Below are positions 4,934 through 22,461 of a stretch of 31,226 nt of DNA, piece by piece; within the stretch, counting starts at the first letter, position 1, and the number at the start of each line of letters is the position of its first letter. Origin of the DNA: a virus. Its lineage: Duplodnaviria; Heunggongvirae; Uroviricota; Caudoviricetes. The translations under genes and the position numbers were made by a program. The notes under the pieces are model-generated. The model searched no databases, had not been told where the DNA came from, and was given only the letters and a program-made list of their open reading frames with translations. The stretch lies in the IMG/VR virus record IMGVR_UViG_2541047916_000004, one strand, 5' to 3'.

Positions 4934-5212
4934 ATGGATAAAAAGCAAATTGAGGCCCTGCAATCTATTATTGAAGAACAAGATGAAGCTATCAGGATTC
5001 TTTCATATCGCACTGATATGATACTAAATATGCTTTCTGCATTAACGGCTGCGCTTGGTGGTACAAAAACAAACGTATACCGCGAAGTTGTTATTCAACA
5101 GATAGATAAATTTGAAAAAACCATACCAGGTATTAATGCTCATCTTGCAGAACAAGAGAAAGACCATGCTCTTATGGCAATTTCTTCAGTAGCTCTCCCG
5201 AAAGTTGAGTAG
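4934..5212 (+). CDS. Hypothetical protein, predicted coiled coil
   Basis: ATG preceded by GGAGGG Shine-Dalgarno 6 nt upstream; 92 aa (MDKKQIEALQSIIEEQDEAIRIL...); AT-rich codon usage distinct from neighbours; opposite orientation to the surrounding leftward operon. Confidence 0.5.
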   Translation: MDKKQIEALQSIIEEQDEAIRILSYRTDMILNMLSALTAALGGTKTNVYREVVIQQIDKFEKTIPGINAHLAEQEKDHALMAISSVALPKVE

Positions 5213-5585
5213 TTTTAATTGTTGTTTTGAAATAATCACTGCTTTCACATTTGAGTGATTTCATGGCAATCCAAATGCGGGCCTCTGTGCCTGCATTTGG
5301 TTCCAGTTGCTGTAGACGTTTTGCGTCTTCCAAAAGTAAGGCGATAATGTGTTTCAGCTTCTCATCATTTGCTTGATTCTTGTTTTCAGGCGAATTCTGT
5401 CCGCCGAATAGGCGCTTCTCTTCATACAGACCTATAAAGGCACGACGCACGTTACCGGATATAGTATCGATGGTTTCCTTTTCTACGGTACTCAGGTCAA
5501 GAGTCGCCAGTTGAGAGCGAACCACATTCGATGCCATTTCCTGGAATGGTACTGGTAAATCTTTAAATTCCATCGTCAACCTCAT
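5172..5585 (-). CDS. Hypothetical protein
   Basis: 137-aa ORF; start overlaps stop of upstream 77-aa ORF by 1 nt (TGATG); 3' end overlaps the convergent + strand ORF by 41 bp. Confidence 0.5.
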   Translation of the reverse strand: MRLTMEFKDLPVPFQEMASNVVRSQLATLDLSTVEKETIDTISGNVRRAFIGLYEEKRLFGGQNSPENKNQANDEKLKHIIALLLEDAKRLQQLEPNAGTEARIWIAMKSLKCESSDYFKTTIKTTQLSGELLKKLP

Positions 5586-8204: not shown

Positions 8205-8951
8205 ATGAAAAACATTGCGGCAGTTGGGGTTCTTGAACGTATTCGCAGACTTGCACCACAGGGGTCGGTTCCACCGTACCGGACGGTGGAGGAGTGGCGG
8301 GAATGGCAACTTGCTGAAGGACGAAAACGCAGCGAGGAGATTAACCGCCAGAATCGCCAGTTGCGGGTGGAAAAAATCCTGAATCGTTCGGGCATCCAGC
8401 CTCTGCACAGCAAATGCTCGTTTGCAAATTATCAGGTGCAGAACGACGGGCAAAAATACGCGCTGAGCCAGGCCAAATCCATAGCTGACGAACTGATGAC
8501 CGGGTGCACGAATTTTGTGTTCAGCGGTAAAACCGGCACCGGGAAAAATCACCTTGCAGCGGCGATGGGCAACCGGCTGATGGTGAAGGGGCGCAGCGTG
8601 ATTATCGTCACCGTGTCTGACGTCATGAGCGTGTTGCATGACAGCTACGACAACGGCAAATCCGGGGAAAAATTTTTACAGGAGCTTTGCGGGGTTGATT
8701 TGCTGGTCCTGGATGAAATAGGCGTTCAGCGGGAGACGAAAAACGAGCAGGTGGTATTGCACCAGATAATTGATCGCCGGACAGCATCACTGTGCAGTGT
8801 CGGGATGTTAACAAACCTGAATCATGCCGCAATGAGTACGCTTCTTGGTGAGAGGATTATGGACCGCATGACCATGAACGGTGGTCGATGGGTGACGTTT
8901 AACTGGGATAGCTGGCGTCCAAATGTCAGCAATATGAGGGTTGTGAAGTAA
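8205..8951 (+). CDS. DnaC-like helicase loader (AAA+ ATPase)
   Basis: 248-aa ORF with Walker A GKTGTGKNHLAAA and Walker B-like LLVLDEIG; immediately downstream of the O-like gene. Confidence 0.85.
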   Translation: MKNIAAVGVLERIRRLAPQGSVPPYRTVEEWREWQLAEGRKRSEEINRQNRQLRVEKILNRSGIQPLHSKCSFANYQVQNDGQKYALSQAKSIADELMTGCTNFVFSGKTGTGKNHLAAAMGNRLMVKGRSVIIVTVSDVMSVLHDSYDNGKSGEKFLQELCGVDLLVLDEIGVQRETKNEQVVLHQIIDRRTASLCSVGMLTNLNHAAMSTLLGERIMDRMTMNGGRWVTFNWDSWRPNVSNMRVVK

Positions 8952-12914: not shown

Positions 12915-13280
12915 ATGACTGAACGCATAGAATTTGTTTTGCCTTACCCGCCAACGGTGAACACTTACTGGCGACGTCGTGGCAGCACATATTTTGTATC
13001 AAAAGTCGGTGAGCGTTATCGCCGTGATGTGGCGCTTATTGTTCGCCAGCAGCAACTGAAATTAAACCTGTCCGGAAGGCCGGCAATAGAAATTATTGCA
13101 GAGCCACCGGATAAGCGCCGTCGTGACCTGGACAATATCCTGAAGGCACCACTGGATGTACTGACGCATGCGGGGCTGCTCATAGACGACGAGCAGTTTG
13201 ATGAAATTAATATTGTGCGCGGTCAGCTTGTTCCTGGTGGGCGGTTGGGGATAAAAATCACAGAACTGGAGTACGCATGA
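12915..13280 (+). CDS. rusA: RusA Holliday-junction resolvase
   Basis: 121-aa ORF with the RusA-family pattern (YWRRRG... PPDKRRRDLDNILKAPLDVLTHAGLLIDDEQ...GGRLGIKITELE). Confidence 0.9.
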   Translation: MTERIEFVLPYPPTVNTYWRRRGSTYFVSKVGERYRRDVALIVRQQQLKLNLSGRPAIEIIAEPPDKRRRDLDNILKAPLDVLTHAGLLIDDEQFDEINIVRGQLVPGGRLGIKITELEYA

Positions 13281-13966
13281 ATAACCAGTATTTACAGTTT
13301 GTTCGTGAGCAACTCATGATTGCCACCGCCGATTTGAGTGGATCAACAAAAGGGCAGCTTGAGGCCTGGCAGGAGAATGCCATGTTTGATACAGGGCGTT
13401 ACAGGCGTAAAAAAATCCGGTACCGCGATGAAGTGACTGGAAAAATGATAACGCGGGATAATCCACCAATCCCGGGAAAGCAATCGCTGGCGAAGGGGGT
13501 GTCAATTCCTCTCGTCAGTCCGGTTGAGTTTTCGACATCATCGTGGCGGCGGGCTGTTCTGTCTCTTGAAGAACATCATAAAGCCTGGTTGTTGTGGTGT
13601 TACAGCGGGAGTATTTGTTGGGAATATCAGATCGCGATAACGCAGTGGGTGTGGAATGAATTTAAAACCCGGTACGGCACCAGAAAAATTGCAGGGAAAA
13701 CGCAGGAGCGCGTGAAGAAGTTGATCTGGCTGGCGGCACAGGATGTCAGAGGATGGATTACCGGGTGTGAGGTCTACCAGAGACAGGAGCTTGCCAGACT
13801 GTGTGGAGTTAAGCCTGATAACTGGAGCCATAATTATGCGAACTACTGGCGTGAGATGTGCGATATTTTTAAGAGTCTCGATAGAGAATCTGTGATTTGC
13901 ACCGTGAAAATAAGAGCGCAACAAAAAGCGACTTTTTCACGACGAGATATTGCAAAAGTCAATTAA
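13277..13966 (+). CDS. Q: Late-gene antiterminator Q-like protein
   Basis: 229-aa ORF coupled to rusA by ATGA overlap; conserved lambdoid position just upstream of a terminator and the late region; contains Cys/His-rich segment. Confidence 0.65.
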   Translation: MNNQYLQFVREQLMIATADLSGSTKGQLEAWQENAMFDTGRYRRKKIRYRDEVTGKMITRDNPPIPGKQSLAKGVSIPLVSPVEFSTSSWRRAVLSLEEHHKAWLLWCYSGSICWEYQIAITQWVWNEFKTRYGTRKIAGKTQERVKKLIWLAAQDVRGWITGCEVYQRQELARLCGVKPDNWSHNYANYWREMCDIFKSLDRESVICTVKIRAQQKATFSRRDIAKVN

Positions 13967-15627: not shown

Positions 15628-15703
15628 GGCCCTTTAGCTCAGTGGTGAGAGCGAGCGACTCATAATCGCCAGGTCGCTGGTTCAAATCCAGCAAGGGCCA
15701 CCA
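15628..15703 (+). tRNA. tRNA-Ile2-like (anticodon CAU; ileX/ileZ-type)
   Basis: 76 nt cloverleaf: acceptor GGCCCTT/AAGGGCC, D-arm AGCTCAGTGGTGAGAGC, anticodon loop CTCATAA, T-loop TTCAAAT, ACCA tail; closely resembles E. coli ileX. Confidence 0.85.
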
Positions 15704-15710
15704 TCACATA

Positions 15711-15787
15711 CCGCCATTAGCTCATCAGGAAAGAGCGCCAGCTTTCGAAGCTGGTTGCGCGGAGTTCGGGTCCCCGAAGGCGGTCCA
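15711..15787 (+). tRNA. tRNA-Arg(UCG)-like, possibly degenerate
   Basis: D-arm GCTC...GAGC and anticodon stem-loop CCAGC-TTTCGAA-GCTGG are clean; acceptor stem has one mismatch and the T-arm is non-canonical (loop TTCGGGT, mismatched stem). Confidence 0.45.
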
Positions 15788-15800
15788 TTATCTGTATCCT

Positions 15801-15877
15801 GCGTTGTTAGCTCAGCCGGACAGAGCAATTGCCTTCTAAGCAATCGGTCACTGGTTCGAATCCAGTACAACGCGCCA
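15801..15877 (+). tRNA. tRNA-Arg (anticodon UCU)
   Basis: 77 nt: acceptor GCGTTGT/ACAACGC, D-arm GCTC...GAGC, anticodon stem-loop ATTGC-CTTCTAA-GCAAT, T-arm ACTGG-TTCGAAT-CCAGT, GCCA tail. Confidence 0.85.
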
Positions 15878-15892
15878 CACTTATTTTCCCTG

Positions 15893-15918
15893 GCTCGCTT
15901 TTGCGGGCTTTTTTTAAA
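15893..15918 (+). terminator. Possible terminator after the tRNA cluster
   Basis: GGCTCGC-TTTT-GCGGGCT imperfect hairpin (G-U wobbles) followed by TTTTTTT. Confidence 0.35.
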
Positions 15919-15920
15919 TG

Positions 15921-16142
15921 TCTCACAATTCAGGCGGTTGACTGTTGTCTGGTTTGCGGGGAGTTTGTTAAAAGAAACTGGCATGGTGAATCCCCCTGTG
16001 CGGAGGGGCAATCAGCGAGTAGGTATATGGGATAATCGCGGATTCAGGTGCTGGTACTGAATTCACCGGGAGGCACCCGGCACCATGCAATGGCACATAG
16101 CGCCACTCTCCAGCCCCTCTCCGGAGGGGCTTTTCTGTGCCG
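15921..16142 (+). repeat. Copy A of a tandem paralogous hairpin-rich element (candidate sRNA unit)
   Basis: Shares with copy B the blocks CTCACAATTCAG..GTTGAC, GCATGGTGAATCCCCCTG(T/A)GCGGAGGGGC, GGTATA..ATAATC, TGAA(T/C)TCACCGGGAGGCACCCGGCACCATG and AGCCCCTCTCCGGAGGGGCTTT (terminator-like hairpin plus T-run); sequence between blocks differs. Confidence 0.45.
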
Positions 16143-16324
16143 GATACATCACAGTTTCTGGAACCTTAGGTACTACAGTATCAGTCAGGGTGCTATATTT
16201 TCAGATGTGATGAAAGCCTGTCAGCAGGCAGGGCGTATCGGAAATGACCCAGTAGAGAAAACGTTGACTCAGATACCGGTGCTGAGTTACCGGGAAACCG
16301 GCATCACATGACCGCTATCCTTCC

Positions 16325-16352
16325 AGGCCCATCCGCTCCGGTGGGCCTTTTT
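16325..16352 (+). terminator. Rho-independent terminator-like hairpin between the two repeat copies
   Basis: AGGCCCA-TCCGCTCCGG-TGGGCCT followed by TTTTT. Confidence 0.45.
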
Positions 16353-16390
16353 ACTGCAGAAAACAGGTTCCCCGTTAAATGCTATGTTGC

Positions 16391-16625
16391 TCACAATTCA
16401 GTAAGTTGACAGTTGCCTGTCAGACTGGGCATTTGTTAAAAAAATTTCGCATGGTGAATCCCCCTGAGCGGAGGGGCGACTGGTGACGGTATAATCTCTG
16501 ATTATCAAAACGAGAATGACGCGGGTTTAGTGGCACCGGGTTGAACTCACCGGGAGGCACCCGGCACCATGTGCATGATGATACAGATACGCGGCTTTAG
16601 CCCCTCTCCGGAGGGGCTTTCTTAT
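16391..16625 (+). repeat. Copy B of the tandem paralogous element (candidate sRNA unit)
   Basis: Same conserved blocks as copy A in the same order, including a perfect TATAAT (GGTATAATC) and the terminal GCCCCTC-TCCG-GAGGGGC hairpin followed by TTTCTT. Confidence 0.45.
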
Positions 16626-16629
16626 GGAC

Positions 16630-16658
16630 AAAAAAAGCCCGCGCTGGGAGACGCGGGC
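16630..16658 (-). terminator. Rho-independent terminator readable on the minus strand
   Basis: Minus strand reads GCCCGCG-TCTCCCA-GCGCGGGC followed by TTTTTTT (plus-strand A-run 16630-16636); lies back-to-back with the plus-strand terminator of copy B. Confidence 0.4.
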
Positions 16659-16851
16659 GGCAAGGAATAAACAATAAAACGTGAAGTAATATTTCAGCTG
16701 GCGAATAATACCCCATAGTAATCACTCTGCGCAACTGCGCGGTCTTTTTCGAATTGCGGGCTGTAGTCTCCCTTCTGCCATTGTCCTGTAACTTCCGGAC
16801 TTCAGCCTGCTCCTTATCTGACTCACAACATTATCCCGCCCGGGAGGATTC

Positions 16852-18705
16852 ATGGCATTTAAACACTATGACGTGGTCAGGGCGGCATCGCCGTCAGACC
16901 TTGCGAAACGACTGACACAAAAACTGAAGGAGGGCTGGCAGCCGTTTGGTAGTCCGGTGGCCATAACCCCTTATACCCTGATGCAGGCGATTGCAGCAGA
17001 AGGTGATGTGGTCGTCAGTGGTGCAACTGAGCCGGAGTGGTACTACGTCATCGTACTGGCCGGGCAATCCAATGCCATGGCTTACGGTGAAGGGCTTCCG
17101 CTTCCGGATTCATACGATGCGCCCCATCCGCGCATTAAGCAACTGGCCCGTCGTAACACAGTGACTCCCGGTGGTGAAGTATGCGTATTTAACGACATCA
17201 TTCCTGCTGACCATTGTCTGCATGATGTTCAGGATATGAGTACGATTAACCATCCCCGGGCTGACCTGAGCAAAGGGCAGTACGGCTGTGTCGGACAGGG
17301 CTTACATATTGCCAAAAAACTGCTTCCGTATATCCCTAATAATGCGGGGATCCTGCTGGTACCATGCTGTCGTGGTGGTTCGGCATTCACCCAGGGCACG
17401 GAGGGGACATTCAGCGAGTCCACGGGAGCCAGTCAGGATTCGGCTCGCTGGGGAGTGGGTAAGCCGTTATATCAGGATCTGCTTTTCCGCACGAAGGCAG
17501 CATTGCAGAAAAACCCGAAAAACGTTTTGCTGGCGATATGCTGGATGCAGGGGGAATTCGATATGACGAATGCCAGTTACGCCCAGCAGCCAGCAGCATT
17601 TCTTGCAATGGTACAGCAGTTCCGTGCTGACCTTGCCGGGCTGGCGGCGCAGTGTCACGGTGGAAGTCCGGCATCAGTCCCCTGGATTTGTGGCGACACG
17701 ACATACGCGTGGAAACAAGAACACGGTACGCAATATGAAGTGGTATATGGTGCATATAAAGGTAAAGAATCCCAGCAGATTTATTTTGTTCCCTTTATGA
17801 CCGATGGTAGCGGAGTTAATACACCGACAAACAACCCGTCAGAAGATCCTGATATTGCCGGGTCTGGTTATTACGGTTCGGCATCCCGAACGAACAAAAA
17901 CTGGGTATCATCAAATCGCCCGACGCATTTCAGCTCATGGGCGCGTCGTGGCATTATTCCCGATCGTATGGCAACTGCTATTCTGAACGTAGCCGGTCGC
18001 ACCTTAGCCTTCATTAGTGGTAAGGCACCGGAAATCAAACCCTCGCCCGGCGGCGACACGCCATCGGGGCCGTCTGAAGATGCATCCATACGCACAATCT
18101 CCCTGTTGCCGACAGCCGGAGACGCTGCTGCGCAGGGCTGGAGCATTAAGAATGGCGGAATTCAGTTGTCAGATGGTGTATTTAAGATCACCAAGCAGAG
18201 CAATAAAGCCTGGTCCCTGACGCGCCCGGTGGATGACGCAGTCTCCCTGCTGACACGGGGTGGCAGACTGAGCTGTAAGTTTCGACTGTCAGGCGCACTG
18301 ACCAACAACCAGTTCGGTCTGGGAATTTATCTGTATACCGATGTAGCGTTACCTGACGTCGTGGCGATGACCGGGACTGGTAACCCGTTCCTGATGTCGT
18401 TCTTCACCCAGACCACAGACGGCAAACTGAATCTGATGCATCACAAGAAAGCAGGAAACACAAAGTTGGGCGAGTTCGGGAATTACAGTAACGACTGGCA
18501 GACGCTGGAGCTGGTGTTCACCGCCGGCAGTGCCACGGTTACTCCGAAACTGAATGGAGTGGCTGGCCCGGCATTCCAGGTCATAAAAGACAGTCTGACA
18601 CTGGGGCTGAATGCGCTGACGCTGACGGATATTACCAAAAATGCAGCGTATGGCGTTGAGATAGAAAGTCTGGTGCTGGAGATAAATGCACCGGCATCAT
18701 CATAA
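16852..18705 (+). CDS. nanS: NanS-p-like prophage sialate O-acetylesterase (N-terminal DUF1737-like region plus SGNH-type esterase)
   Basis: 617-aa ORF with GGGAGG RBS; N-terminus MAFKHYDVVRAASPSDLAKRL... and esterase-like core (VLAGQSNAMAYGEG); occupies the position just downstream of stx in Shiga-toxin phages. Confidence 0.8.
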   Translation: MAFKHYDVVRAASPSDLAKRLTQKLKEGWQPFGSPVAITPYTLMQAIAAEGDVVVSGATEPEWYYVIVLAGQSNAMAYGEGLPLPDSYDAPHPRIKQLARRNTVTPGGEVCVFNDIIPADHCLHDVQDMSTINHPRADLSKGQYGCVGQGLHIAKKLLPYIPNNAGILLVPCCRGGSAFTQGTEGTFSESTGASQDSARWGVGKPLYQDLLFRTKAALQKNPKNVLLAICWMQGEFDMTNASYAQQPAAFLAMVQQFRADLAGLAAQCHGGSPASVPWICGDTTYAWKQEHGTQYEVVYGAYKGKESQQIYFVPFMTDGSGVNTPTNNPSEDPDIAGSGYYGSASRTNKNWVSSNRPTHFSSWARRGIIPDRMATAILNVAGRTLAFISGKAPEIKPSPGGDTPSGPSEDASIRTISLLPTAGDAAAQGWSIKNGGIQLSDGVFKITKQSNKAWSLTRPVDDAVSLLTRGGRLSCKFRLSGALTNNQFGLGIYLYTDVALPDVVAMTGTGNPFLMSFFTQTTDGKLNLMHHKKAGNTKLGEFGNYSNDWQTLELVFTAGSATVTPKLNGVAGPAFQVIKDSLTLGLNALTLTDITKNAAYGVEIESLVLEINAPASS

Positions 18706-18790
18706 AAAGTGAGCCAGCCAAATGGAAGGTATCGTTAAACTCACCGGTAGTGTCAGTGGGTCGTCTGAGACGCCTGCATGAGTTATCAGA

Positions 18791-18820
18791 GCCATCAGTA
18801 CTTAACTGGTGGCTTTTTTT
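18791..18820 (+). terminator. Rho-independent terminator after nanS-p
   Basis: GCCATCAG-TACTTAA-CTGGTGGC (one G-U wobble) followed by TTTTTTT. Confidence 0.5.
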
Positions 18821-18855: not shown

Positions 18856-19071
18856 ATGTACCAGATGGAAAAAATCACAACAGGTGTGTCATACACCACG
18901 TCAGCGGTGGGAACGGGCTACTGGTTCCTGCAGTTGCTGGACAGGGTTTCCCCGTCTCAGTGGGCGGCAATAGGCGTGCTGGGGAGTCTGCTGTTTGGGC
19001 TGCTGACATATCTGACTAACCTGTATTTCAAAATCAGAGAGGACCGTCGTAAGGCGGCACGGGGAGAGTAA
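18856..19071 (+). CDS. S: Pinholin, phage 21 S21-like (dual-start holin/antiholin)
   Basis: 71-aa [74 protein letters not shown], closely resembling the S21 pinholin; Met1 and Met4 give the dual-start motif; upstream part of the longer ORF from 18778 is discarded. Confidence 0.85.
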
Positions 19072-19075
19072 TTCA

Positions 19076-19420
19076 ATGACTCAAAACTATGAACTGATTG
19101 TGAAAGGGATCCGCAATTTTGAGAATAAAGTTACGGTAACTTTAGCGTTACGGGACAAAAAACGCTTTGACGGTGAAATTTTTGACCTGGACATCTCGCT
19201 GGACCGTGTTGAAGGTGCCGCGCTGGAGTTTTATGAGGCAGCAGCCAGAAGGAGCATCAGACAGGTCTTCCTGGATGTTGCTGCCGGGTTATGTGAAGGG
19301 GATGAGCAGTCGCCGGAAAAGCGCCCCGTAATTTTAGAGGCGCAGGATGTGTTGATAACCTACAGAGGAAAACTACCGGGAATAATTACGGGTTCTCTGA
19401 AGAGTCCGCCGAAATGGTAA
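19076..19420 (+). CDS. Hypothetical protein inserted between holin and endolysin
   Basis: 114-aa ORF starting 4 nt after the holin stop, with GGGAGAG RBS; no recognisable motif. Confidence 0.55.
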   Translation: MTQNYELIVKGIRNFENKVTVTLALRDKKRFDGEIFDLDISLDRVEGAALEFYEAAARRSIRQVFLDVAAGLCEGDEQSPEKRPVILEAQDVLITYRGKLPGIITGSLKSPPKW

Positions 19421-19658
19421 TTTTACCAGCATATTTTTCATCCAGTAATACAGCAAGCCGCCTGAAAGAGTCTTGTTGTTCCTGAGACCATTTGGGATTG
19501 CATGATTCAAACTGGATTGATGCCAGCGTTGATTGCATCTGTTCCCTTGGAATTGAGAATGCCAGATATGAGAAGGCGACGGTAAGGGTATTCACGTCTT
19601 CCCGAAGCCTGGAAATGCTGTCGAGCAACTCCTGTAGAGAAATGGTGTTATTGTCCAT
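19386..19658 (-). CDS. Hypothetical protein, antisense to the lysis operon
   Basis: 90-aa ORF with GAGGA RBS 7 nt upstream of ATG on the minus strand; 3' end overlaps the convergent 114-aa gene by 35 bp; relatively AT-rich. Confidence 0.5.
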   Translation of the reverse strand: MDNNTISLQELLDSISRLREDVNTLTVAFSYLAFSIPREQMQSTLASIQFESCNPKWSQEQQDSFRRLAVLLDEKYAGKITISADSSENP

Positions 19659-19763
19659 AAATAATCCTCATGATTGTATTGACCTGTTAGCAGCCTGAGG
19701 CAACAGGCTGGAACTGATAAACATATCCAGGGCTCAGAAACCGATAAATCCTGATAAATATCC

Positions 19764-20297
19764 ATGAACGCAAAAATCAGATACGGCCTGTCGGCTGCCG
19801 TTCTGGCGCTGATTGCCGCTGGTGCGCCTGCGCCTGACATTCTCGACCAGTTTCTGGATGAAAAGGAAGGTAACCACACCACGGCATACCGTGATGGCGC
19901 GGGTATCTGGACCATCTGCCGCGGTGCCATCCTGGTGGATGGCAAACCTGTCGTTCCGGGCATGAAGTTGTCGAAGGAAAAATGCGACCGGGTTAACGCC
20001 ATTGAGCGTGATAAGGCGCTGGCATGGGTGGAGAAAAACATCAAAGTGCCATTGAGCGAACCCCAGAAAGCGGGGATCGCGTCATTCTGTCCGTACAACA
20101 TTGGTCCCGGTAAGTGTTTCCCGTCGACGTTTTATAAACGAATTAATGCAGGTGATCGCAGGGGAGCGTGTGAGGCGATTCGCTGGTGGATTAAGGACGG
20201 TGGCAGAGACTGCCGTATTCGTTCAAACAACTGCTACGGTCAGGTATCCCGTCGTGACCAGGAGAGCGCGCTGGCGTGCTGGGGTATCGACAGATAA
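19764..20297 (+). CDS. R: SAR endolysin (T4-lysozyme-like, GH24)
   Basis: 177-aa ORF; N-terminal signal-anchor-release segment LSAAVLALIAAGAPAP; catalytic region EGNHTTAYRDGAGIWTICRG; functional partner of an S21-type pinholin. Confidence 0.9.
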   Translation: MNAKIRYGLSAAVLALIAAGAPAPDILDQFLDEKEGNHTTAYRDGAGIWTICRGAILVDGKPVVPGMKLSKEKCDRVNAIERDKALAWVEKNIKVPLSEPQKAGIASFCPYNIGPGKCFPSTFYKRINAGDRRGACEAIRWWIKDGGRDCRIRSNNCYGQVSRRDQESALACWGIDR

Positions 20298-20388
20298 GCA
20301 GAATATTTTGCTGAAAAATGCGGTTTGCTTACACGGACGGATAACACGAAATCCTGCGAACTGACAAAAACTAAGTGAATAAAAGTAA

Positions 20389-20427
20389 AAACCCCGTTTG
20401 TTGGCAGCAAGCGGGGTTTTGTTTTTA
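20389..20427 (+). terminator. Strong rho-independent terminator downstream of the endolysin
   Basis: CCCCGTTTG-TTGGCAG-CAAGCGGGG (9-bp stem with one G-U) followed by TTTTGTTTTT. Confidence 0.6.
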
Positions 20428-20491
20428 TGGCAGTAAGCTATGGGAGGCTGCCTTGATTGATTTTAGCAAACTGATTAGGGAGTTGCGACTC

Positions 20492-20587
20492 ATGATTAGT
20501 CAATTACCAAACTGGAAATTTTTGCTGGTCTGGAGCATCCCTTTTTTATGGGTAGTATCCCAGTTAATTGTGGCAATTAAGGGGTAG
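20492..20587 (+). CDS. Small hydrophobic peptide 1 (31 aa)
   Basis: ATG preceded by AGGGAG; MISQLPNWKFLLVWSIPFLWVVSQLIVAIKG, a single predicted TM segment; below the 60-aa ORF-track cutoff as a stand-alone gene. Confidence 0.35.
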   Translation: MISQLPNWKFLLVWSIPFLWVVSQLIVAIKG

Positions 20588-20589
20588 CT

Positions 20590-20721
20590 ATGTCAGACAA
20601 ACTCATAACGCCGGCAAAGGTCCTGTGTGTGATTGTCGGTATTTCATTTTCACTAATGCTGGTTGCTCTTTTTCTGTCCCTCGCCTGGGTGATGTTGTCT
20701 TCGTCGGGGCTGCTGGGGTGA
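20590..20721 (+). CDS. Small hydrophobic peptide 2 (43 aa)
   Basis: ATG preceded by AAGGGG with 5-nt spacer; MSDKLITPAKVLCVIVGISFSLMLVALFLSLAWVMLSSSGLLG; starts 2 nt after the peptide 1 stop. Confidence 0.4.
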   Translation: MSDKLITPAKVLCVIVGISFSLMLVALFLSLAWVMLSSSGLLG

Positions 20722-20840
20722 CAGTGACTGATGACATCAGCAGAGCGCTGGCTTTTGCTATTAAGTGGGTGGCTGTTGGTATTGCTGTGTCTCCGATGCT
20801 GTATGGGCTGGCAAAACTGGTCATTGCGCTGAAATCGTGA
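20718..20840 (+). CDS. Small hydrophobic peptide 3 (about 40 aa, GTG start)
   Basis: GTG overlapping the peptide 2 stop (GTGA); ...SRALAFAIKWVAVGIAVSPMLYGLAKLVIALKS; start codon choice uncertain. Confidence 0.3.
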   Translation: MTVTDDISRALAFAIKWVAVGIAVSPMLYGLAKLVIALKS

Positions 20841-20851
20841 ACTTTAAAAAG

Positions 20852-20938
20852 ATGAGTGCTGAACTTATTCGGGCAATGGCATTTGCCATTCGTATTGTGG
20901 CCATTGCTGTTCTGGTCTGGGCAATCCGTTGGTGGTGA
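20852..20938 (+). CDS. Small hydrophobic peptide 4 (28 aa)
   Basis: [28 protein letters not shown]; shares the motif A(L/M)AFAI(K/R) with peptide 3; stop is 1 nt before the Rz start; weak RBS. Confidence 0.3.
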
Positions 20939-20939
20939 T

Positions 20940-21853: not shown

Positions 21854-22054
21854 TCATTTCTCGTTATTTGTCATGCTGGCCGGGCGCAGATGCGTTGCAT
21901 CTGTTGCCAGCCTTCTCCTGCAGGCTTCAATAACCCACGCTGAAAAGTTACCGGACCCTTTATGCTCAAGGGCGATGTTGATCTGTTCAATTATGTGATT
22001 GGGGAAACGGATATTGCGGGTTGTGGTTCTGCGGGTCCGGTTTTTCGATGACAT
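21854..22054 (-). CDS. Ribbon-helix-helix-like small DNA-binding protein
   Basis: 66 aa from the internal ATG at 22054 with AAGGA RBS 9 nt upstream; NIRFPNHIIEQINIALEHKGSGNFSAWVIEACRRRL resembles an RHH fold; the longer upstream extension is discarded. Confidence 0.5.
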   Translation of the reverse strand: MSSKNRTRRTTTRNIRFPNHIIEQINIALEHKGSGNFSAWVIEACRRRLATDATHLRPASMTNNEK

Positions 22055-22095
22055 ATTTATTTCCTTTACTGATTGCCATATGACGGGGATTTTAC

Positions 22096-22461
22096 ATGGC
22101 TGAGCTTCGTACACTCCAGAGCAGAATCAAAACACTGAATACCCGACGGGTGAATATTCTGAAGGGGGAGCAGCGTCGTGTCAGTGGCAGTGCACGTGTT
22201 TCCCTCAAGCGTCATATCTGGCTGAGGGACGCCGGGCAGTGCTGTATCTGTGGTCGTGTGGTTGACCTCTGTGACAGTGAACTCGATCACCGAATTGCAC
22301 TTCAGTTCGGTGGTGGTAATGAGGAGACGAATCTTTGGACGCTCTGTGCCGAATGCCATCGACAAAAGTCTGCTCGTGAAGCGGCGAGTGGTATGCCGGA
22401 CCCGACGCTGCCGGAGGTGTCCGGAGGTAGTGGCAGAGAGGACGACATCATCGGACTGTAA
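22096..22461 (+). CDS. HNH endonuclease (terminase-associated)
   Basis: 121-aa ORF with CCICG...DHRIALQFGG...N...CAECH motif; located just upstream of the packaging site and terminase genes. Confidence 0.85.
   Translation: MAELRTLQSRIKTLNTRRVNILKGEQRRVSGSARVSLKRHIWLRDAGQCCICGRVVDLCDSELDHRIALQFGGGNEETNLWTLCAECHRQKSAREAASGMPDPTLPEVSGGSGREDDIIGL

Follow-up and report, generated by a model that had tools for sequence, protein, structure and literature searches.

A convergent ydfR-A90 gene pair between the holin and endolysin genes of a lambdoid Escherichia coli prophage, probably a portable accessory module

The morons bor and lom of phage lambda are small accessory genes in or beside the late operon that carry their own expression signals, are atypical in base composition and are expressed in the lysogen; bor, moreover, is antisense and adjoins the lysis genes. 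Other phages, such as P1 (lydB) and P2 (lysA, lysB and lysC), have small genes that separate or adjoin the holin and endolysin genes, and small genes within lysis cassettes are sometimes regulators. The present analysis concerns two genes, ydfR on the plus strand and a gene designated A90 on the minus strand, that separate the holin gene S from the endolysin gene R in a lambdoid, Shiga toxin (Stx) phage-like Escherichia coli prophage without stx (IMG/VR virus record IMGVR_UViG_2541047916_000004). The whole 31,226-nucleotide (nt) stretch of this record is referred to as the window. The preferred reading, to which a probability of roughly 55% is assigned, is that the S-R gap holds a portable two-gene accessory pair and not lysis machinery, with ydfR expressed late and A90 from its own transcription, probably in the lysogen.

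The pair, its signals and its immediate neighbours are located as follows in the window.

18856-19071, plus strand: S21-type class II (pin)holin gene, 71 residues, upstream neighbour of the pair (Pfam PF04971, 9e-33; phrog holin).
19076-19420, plus strand: ydfR, 114 residues, with GGGGAGAG as Shine-Dalgarno sequence (open reading frame (ORF) list, Pfam, phrog).
19316-19420, plus strand: C-terminal tail of YdfR, residues 81-114 (...ITYRGKLPGIITGSLKSPPKW), a motif common to the C-termini of A90 partners.
19386-19420, both strands: 35-bp convergent overlap of the 3' ends of ydfR and A90 (ORF coordinates).
19386-19658, minus strand: A90 ('Ybl58'), 90 residues, antisense to the late operon (ORF list, phrog).
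19412-19722: segment of ~311 bp that is present here and missing in S-ydfR-R phages, among them Stx2_EH2201 and vB_EcoS-640R1 (pairwise alignments).
19665-19669, minus strand: A90 Shine-Dalgarno sequence GAGGA, 6 nt before the ATG (homologue consensus (A/G)AGGA(T/A), always intact).
19686-19710, minus strand: leader stem-loop CAGCCUG-UUGCCU-CAGGCUG; its 3' arm continues into the box GGCUGCUAAC (window sequence and cross-locus comparison).
19720-19732, minus strand: candidate A90 promoter core, a CCCTGG box followed by TATGTT (19725-19720), 8 nt before the leader box.
19764-20297, plus strand: R21-like lysozyme gene (signal-arrest-release (SAR)-type endolysin), downstream neighbour of the pair (Pfam PF00959, 5.5e-24).

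The cassette combines a class II holin of the phage 21 S family (PF04971) with a lysozyme-family endolysin (PF00959), whose N-terminus (…GLSAAVLALIAAGAPAP…) has SAR character when its sequence is judged by eye. The ORFs, their spacings, the ribosome-binding sites and the 35-bp overlap described in a first-pass annotation of this DNA were all confirmed in the sequence. In an evenly spaced sample of 455 matching GenBank phage records, about half have S and R adjacent with a span of 754 bp (Min27, VT1-Sakai and 933W-like Stx2a phages), and R then starts 4 nt past the S stop codon, using GGGGAGAG within S. About one-fifth have the order S-ydfR-R (1149 bp), and a few carry a long ydfR together with an unrelated antisense gene (Stx2 phage 86). 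The coexistence of S-R adjacent, S-ydfR-R and S-ydfR-A90-R relatives identifies the S-R gap as a true polymorphic insertion site, in line with the first-pass proposal that the two genes were inserted relative to S21/R21 cassettes. ydfR fills exactly the slot that R occupies in the adjacent cassettes, 4 nt (TTCA) past the holin stop codon (19069-19071), and takes over GGGGAGAG. The region upstream of R differs, and the R start codon is without a Shine-Dalgarno sequence (19733-19766; …GATAAATATCCATG; …CCTGATAAATATCCATG), as in ydfR-containing cassettes generally. The inserted DNA is also lower in guanine-plus-cytosine content (0.478 in ydfR, 0.445 in A90 and 0.41 in the intergenic DNA) than S (0.537) and R (0.552). 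Insertion between otherwise adjacent genes and a base composition unlike that of the flanking genes are both expected of a moron, and the former is seen again between M and L in the tail-cluster cases described below.

The first-pass annotation had presented this arrangement as unusual, which proved not to be the case. Among 5426 complete E. coli genomes, ydfR-like DNA, K-12-type ydfR included, occurs at 8439 places in 4305 genomes, close to the 8940 places at which the holin of the window is found. The A90-specific segment is present in 1123 of these genomes (21%) and falls into allele groups of at least 99% identity (535 records) and 80-90% identity (589 records). The whole two-gene interval is found in about 1130 genomes, BL21 among them, under the labels 'YdfR family protein' and 'hypothetical protein', and the S-ydfR-A90-R geometry is invariant in about 80 viral contigs. 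The first-pass annotation had also stated that its view would fail if the two ORFs turned out to be a conserved, standard cassette component with a known function. The pair is indeed conserved and standard; neither gene, however, has an assigned function, although the pair occurs in about one-fifth of complete E. coli genomes.

A close counterpart is the Rac remnant of E. coli BL21 (NZ_CP060121.1, positions 1372287-1373725; essD, ydfR, a minus-strand gene for a 90-residue hypothetical protein, rrrQ), which has the same four-gene order as the window, including the 35-bp overlap, and 84% DNA identity across the A90 segment. It carries the other allele group, however, and its prophage is defective and has no late activator close by. 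Stx2-converting phage 86 carries gp05 and gp06 between s and r in a similar order, a YdfR-family gene directly after S, then a small minus-strand gene, then R. Its gp05, however, is a 268-residue protein with about 155 residues beyond the tail motif, and gp05 and gp06 do not overlap. The 104-residue gp06 product was considered as an A90 relative and rejected (hhalign probability 0.1%).

A90 matches phrog_2411, a family with no assigned function, over its full length (positions 1-90 of 90, E = 1.1e-58), and its distant members P0065, P0067, P0073 and P0075 match the same family. The exact sequence occurs on at least 1000 contigs and is listed as 'hypothetical protein' in RefSeq (WP_000369850.1) and as 'Ybl58' in UniProt. 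Homologues form 62 clusters of 81-97 residues from Escherichia, Shigella, Citrobacter, Klebsiella, Atlantibacter and Sodalis. In every one of them the A90 frame is open, at nucleotide identities down to 60% and protein identities down to 24-40%, and the ATG is always intact. The ratio of nonsynonymous to synonymous substitution rates (dN/dS), calculated on the 79 codons outside the ydfR overlap, is 0.11-0.30 against five independent alleles. In some Logan contigs (L007-L009) A90 is intact where ydfR has decayed to a stop-ridden pseudogene remnant, and to judge from these contigs A90 is maintained on its own account. By the standards of comparative sequence analysis, A90 is therefore a real, conserved gene that encodes a protein. 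The protein is acidic (13 Asp/Glu against 8 Arg/Lys), and an AlphaFold2 model built from 20 sequences has three helices (residues 8-34, 38-52 and 59-77) with a predicted local distance difference test score (pLDDT) of 76. An apparent 44%-identical relative, the 'ybl58' entry P0061, was rejected as a frameshifted copy with the same N- and C-terminus. The name 'ybl58' was not found in the literature searched, and the papers found on Stx-phage lysis cassettes leave the intervening genes undiscussed.

The 114-residue YdfR protein matches Pfam family PF07041 (DUF1327) over residues 1-111 (E = 7.3e-43, 145.2 bits against a gathering cutoff of 25 bits) and phrog_406 (4e-68). It is labelled 'YdfR family protein' in RefSeq, and 318 homologue clusters bear that family name. 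Its AlphaFold2 model (pLDDT 65) has three strands and a long helix, with three more, short strands formed by the tail. A fold search against the Protein Data Bank (PDB) gave no significant match; the top match was to the nucleic-acid-binding PUR repeats of PUR-alpha (E = 0.05, for a model with a pLDDT of only 65).

The characterized member of this family is the Qin prophage protein YdfR of E. coli K-12 (P76160), whose gene presumably lies between the holin gene essQ and the lysozyme gene rrrQ of Qin. It shares the N-terminal DUF1327 domain with the window protein (DNA match at query positions 1-200), but diverges past about residue 67 and so has no ...ITGSLKxP tail, and, unlike the window, K-12-type matches have no antisense A90 beneath them. 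K-12 YdfR, the only family member for which this has been reported, binds the catalytic N-terminal domain of ribonuclease E (RNase E), for which residues 1-72 suffice (bacterial two-hybrid assay and pull-down); in the same 2026 study RNA co-purifies with it, and its overproduction alters few transcripts, with a limited effect on the transcriptome (PMC13232886). As read here, these results suggest that K-12 YdfR is cytoplasmic and has the catalytic half of RNase E, and possibly RNA as well, as a binding partner. The RNase E-interacting residues 1-72 correspond to the domain shared with the window protein.

A new observation is that, in the loci compared, phage-borne A90-family genes across Enterobacterales have a convergent partner that overlaps their 3' end, by 7-20 bp in the pairs other than that of the window.

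Citrobacter: convergent partner of 238 or 77 residues, 14-bp overlap, upstream of a lambda-S-type holin gene (PF05106) and a CHAP endolysin gene.
Atlantibacter and a metagenome phage: partner of 71 or 60 residues, 7-15 bp overlap, between the tail genes M and L.
Klebsiella: partner of 66 residues, 20-bp overlap, upstream of the terminase genes.
Another lineage: partner of 85 residues.

The N-termini of these partners differ. At the C-terminus, the motif IKGx6I(T/F)G(S/D)LxxP is present in five of the six non-E. coli lineages, as it is in YdfR (...YRGKLPGIITGSLKSPPKW). Alignment of YdfR with the partners by hhalign places the similarity at YdfR columns 81-114 (probability 72%, E = 3.5e-5). Since A90 occurs with a YdfR-tailed convergent partner in other genera and at other positions, ydfR and A90 are unlikely to represent two separate insertions. 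In the S-ydfR-R phages 'ccctggatat' is still present, as is a portion of the hairpin's 3' arm, and the last 8 codons of A90 lie within sequence common to the ydfR genes of A90-less phages. Because remnants of both ends of the A90 segment persist there, A90 was probably lost from these phages rather than gained in the window. Thus, these comparisons suggest that the ydfR tail came in together with A90, as a single unit, and that many phages have since lost A90. Judged across the loci, the pair is mobile between different late-operon sites, both of its genes are real and conserved, and the leader hairpin is conserved with them.

The hairpin CAGCCTG-TTGCCT-CAGGCTG noted in the first pass upstream of the minus-strand gene is present at 19691-19710, 32 nt upstream of the A90 ATG. 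CAGCCTG-N6-CAGGCTG occurs once in the window against an expectation of 0 in shuffled sequences, and the fold energy of the 59-nt leader is unremarkable (z = -1.4). The hairpin takes its meaning solely from comparison with other loci: the A90-family genes of other phages are preceded by a leader element (UCAGCC ... inner hairpin ... GGCUGAUUAAC) of which the hairpin is a collapsed version. The phage-borne genes have a UCAGC(C/U) box that is able to pair with a second box, GGCUGAU(U/A)A(A/C)C, situated 17-27 nt upstream of the ATG; in the non-E. coli modules the two boxes enclose an inner hairpin. Across six non-E. coli loci, 92.9% of cells are paired and 6 of 8 inner-hairpin pairs have changed on both sides. 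None of 500 shuffles reached the observed pairing, and sliding the partner columns reduced it to 20-49%. The inner hairpin in these six sequences also has four G·U cells on the A90-sense strand. With n = 6, the covariation and the strand of the G·U pairs are supportive of a leader RNA, not conclusive. In the window region no relevant Rfam match was obtained at E ≤ 1, and in the six loci none exceeded the gathering score. The hairpin was rejected as an intrinsic terminator, with no T-run on either strand in the window.

A TAnnnT hexamer precedes the UCAGC box by 7-8 nt in nine of ten modules and by 4 nt in the tenth. In the window this hexamer is TATGTT, and the A90 transcript probably starts about 8 nt past this -10-like element, near position 19712, so that it would begin at the stem. 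An alternative promoter (TTGCCT, 19 nt, TACAAT) was set aside; it falls inside and after the hairpin, would leave a leader of only ~10 nt and is unconserved outside E. coli. A minus-strand promoter-like sequence inside ydfR that faces the holin gene (TTATCA-16-TAAAAT, 19358-19331) is at chance level (1 found, 1.8 expected from shuffles).

These elements suggest how the pair may be expressed. ydfR, in the translational slot just behind the holin, would be made with the late genes. A90 is antisense to the late operon and hence cannot be produced from late transcription; its opposed orientation, own Shine-Dalgarno sequence, -10-like element and leader agree with the first-pass deduction that it is expressed independently of late transcription. 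Its expression would be confined to periods without late transcription, namely the lysogenic state or the early phase of infection, and would proceed from a transcript that opens with the stem-loop and carries its own ribosome-binding site. Q-antiterminated transcription from pR' would then meet the A90 transcription unit head-on and should turn A90 off through transcriptional interference and antisense pairing, YdfR being made meanwhile. The two genes would thus form a reciprocal pair, A90 on in the lysogen and off late, ydfR on late. On this reading A90 and YdfR would also work together, the conserved tail of YdfR being the part on or through which A90 acts. Inferred, as opposed to shown, are the A90 promoter, the lysogen expression, the protein link between YdfR and A90 and any phenotype of the pair.

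Three other explanations have to be weighed against an accessory pair. That the minus-strand ORF is no gene, its conserved features belonging to the plus strand or to a non-coding element, is scarcely credible. The plus-strand frame that shares the A90 wobble positions does have a low dN/dS (0.15-0.29) and forms a 68-residue ORF in the window (19492-19698), but it is broken by stops at differing positions in five of seven alleles, so that its low dN/dS is the known antisense-frame artefact. The A90 frame, by contrast, stays open across six genera to protein identities of 24-40% with its ATG and Shine-Dalgarno sequence conserved, and the model of its 90-residue product is confident. A role in lysis control, in which YdfR or A90 regulates the holin or endolysin, or in which convergent A90 transcription and antisense RNA over ydfR and S tune the S:R ratio and the timing of lysis, is improbable. 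It would fit the position of the pair exactly between S and R, the precedent of P1 lydB and P2 lysA, lysB and lysC, the loss by R of the Shine-Dalgarno sequence it uses in S-R adjacent cassettes, and the apparent lack of a terminator past A90, since a transcript would then extend antisense into ydfR and S. The same pair, however, lies between M and L, upstream of terminase genes and beside an unrelated type of holin and endolysin, which argues against a lysis-specific role and, in particular, against the first-pass suggestion of an effect on S21/R21 timing. A90 paralogues occur outside phages, purifying selection acts on the A90 protein sequence and so on more than the act of transcription, many phages work with S and R adjacent, the holin has its own dual-start pattern (Met1 and Met4), and neither YdfR nor A90 has a membrane segment. 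For P1 LydB and P2 LysA, LysB and LysC, the likeness is one of position; no relation in sequence or fold to the pair was found, and A90 and its partners are also present in tail and packaging clusters. With A90 present in about one-fifth of complete E. coli genomes, the module is, moreover, a widespread passenger rather than a novel device for controlling lysis.

A two-component conflict system (toxin-antitoxin-like, abortive infection, or defence with a self-antidote) is doubtful but deserves more weight than a role in lysis control. Here A90 made in the lysogen would act on superinfecting phages or on a host target and be neutralized by the late, tail-bearing partner, or the reverse. Overlapping convergent pairs have been inherited together in several genera and at several insertion sites, the tail of the partner is conserved, and A90 is small, acidic and helical, as is typical of protein inhibitors. 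The same cassettes also collect other genes of this sort (ParDE and Rha, for instance, follow R in L007-L009), and A90 is common in resident prophages (21% of genomes) and rare in isolated phages (3 of 50,697 phage records: vB_EcoS-783R2, Chlobot and phiSTEC1575-Stx2k). Against this, neither protein matched PADLOC at E ≤ 1, the sole Pfam match was DUF1327 and no toxin, antitoxin or defence family was recovered; an NCBIfam match to Mip scored 13.7 bits against a cutoff of 50. Each partner, moreover, is often found without the other, and overproduction of K-12 YdfR has a limited effect on the transcriptome (PMC13232886), although that protein does not carry the present tail. A conflict role, or one linked to RNase E, is conceivable for the pair. 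A more ambitious proposal is unlikely. It holds that YdfR-tailed partners and Ybl58 (A90) belong to a family of mobile two-gene modules, convergent in layout and so far overlooked, in Enterobacterales prophages, in which a three-helix protein with a structured 5' leader RNA is expressed in the lysogen and a partner with a conserved C-terminal docking tail is expressed late. Such a module would act as a switch between lysogeny and lytic growth, either as a defence or host-modulation factor with a late antidote or as an RNase E-linked pair.

The accessory-pair reading thus stays the preferred one, and the first-pass suggestion of a candidate moron is reasonable in view of the insertion, the lower guanine-plus-cytosine content and the own Shine-Dalgarno sequence, -10-like element and leader of A90. 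bor, which resembles A90 in being antisense and next to the lysis genes, is seen in such a position in L002 and L003. bor and lom, however, encode outer-membrane proteins with known phenotypes, in contrast to A90, whose product is soluble, acidic and helical and which is inherited together with a convergent partner. Several results weigh against this reading. No consensus -35 element is present at the candidate A90 promoter and a simple promoter scan made no call there, while a terminator scan found none for the A90 transcript. The leader element of the window is a single 7-bp hairpin, and its stem is shorter or mismatched in the two other E. coli alleles examined (L010 and L007). A90 has no usable match in Pfam, NCBIfam, PADLOC or PDB sequences by profile and sequence searches, and the best fold match in the PDB and BFVD (E = 0.57) offered nothing that hints at a biochemical activity. 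About three-quarters of ydfR-carrying genomes are without A90. The tail homology between YdfR and the partners spans just ~31 columns at the hhalign probability of 72%, the phage-borne partner in L097 is without the tail motif, and solitary A90 paralogues on chromosomes (dinI-X-bssS; Sodalis) and IncF plasmids indicate that pairing is not obligatory.

If the accessory-pair reading holds, the S-R gap is a cargo slot and not a lysis clock, which should curb over-interpretation in the annotation of Stx-like phages. The tail-bearing partner and the covarying leader hairpin provide a testable handle on two 'hypothetical' families. If the pair turns out to act in conflict or in regulation, it would extend the list of such systems by a small prophage module that is very common; otherwise it is an ordinary moron.

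Several further observations were made on the relatives of the pair. A 92-residue distant A90-family gene without a convergent partner lies between dinI and bssS on a non-phage chromosome (L102 and L103; positions 3001-3279 in L102), where the RNase E gene rne ends ~1.7 kb upstream. An A90 paralogue with 64% identity and 89-92 residues is carried by ~73 E. coli plasmids, most of them conjugative (L106, the IncF plasmid NZ_CP076283.1, positions 4989-5267; also L104), immediately after a gene for an AIDA-type autotransporter and ahead of one for an AraC-type regulator. The genes downstream of R in L007-L009 are a ParD/ParE toxin-antitoxin pair and a Rha-type antirepressor gene (L007 positions 845-2123). 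The IMG/VR contig L040 has a second, partial S-ydfR-R-Rz copy beside S-ydfR-A90-R, ~240-1710 downstream of the A90 start, possibly because the lysis cassette was duplicated in tandem or by recombination.

Upstream of the lysis cassette, the window has the following layout.

13277-13966: Q, followed by a methylase gene.
15628-15877: tRNA genes Met(CAT), Arg(TCG) and Arg(TCT), downstream of Q and the DNA methylase gene.
16852-18705: nanS-p-like esterase gene, followed by the lysis genes and then by terminase and capsid genes.

The layout around the tRNA cluster resembles that of Stx phages, which have their toxin genes in that region. In the window (15628-16851), the tRNA cluster is followed by about 1 kb without a long ORF before the esterase gene, and no ORF of stx size was seen there. 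A terminator-like hairpin with a 12-pair stem and a T-run (18788-18816, plus strand) stands between the esterase and holin genes, inside the late transcription unit.

A second gap in the lysis cassette, of 643 bp, separates R from Rz (20298-20939). It contains a strong terminator-like hairpin (20388-20420, plus strand; 15-pair stem and T-run) and small hydrophobic ORFs, for example that at 20590-20721 (43 residues). In vB_EcoS-783R2 these ORFs bear the label hypothetical protein, and the corresponding gap of other relatives holds Ant, Rha or ParDE. Finally, an 86-residue DUF3950 gene (21854-22114, minus strand) between Rz and the terminase genes is likewise antisense to the late operon.

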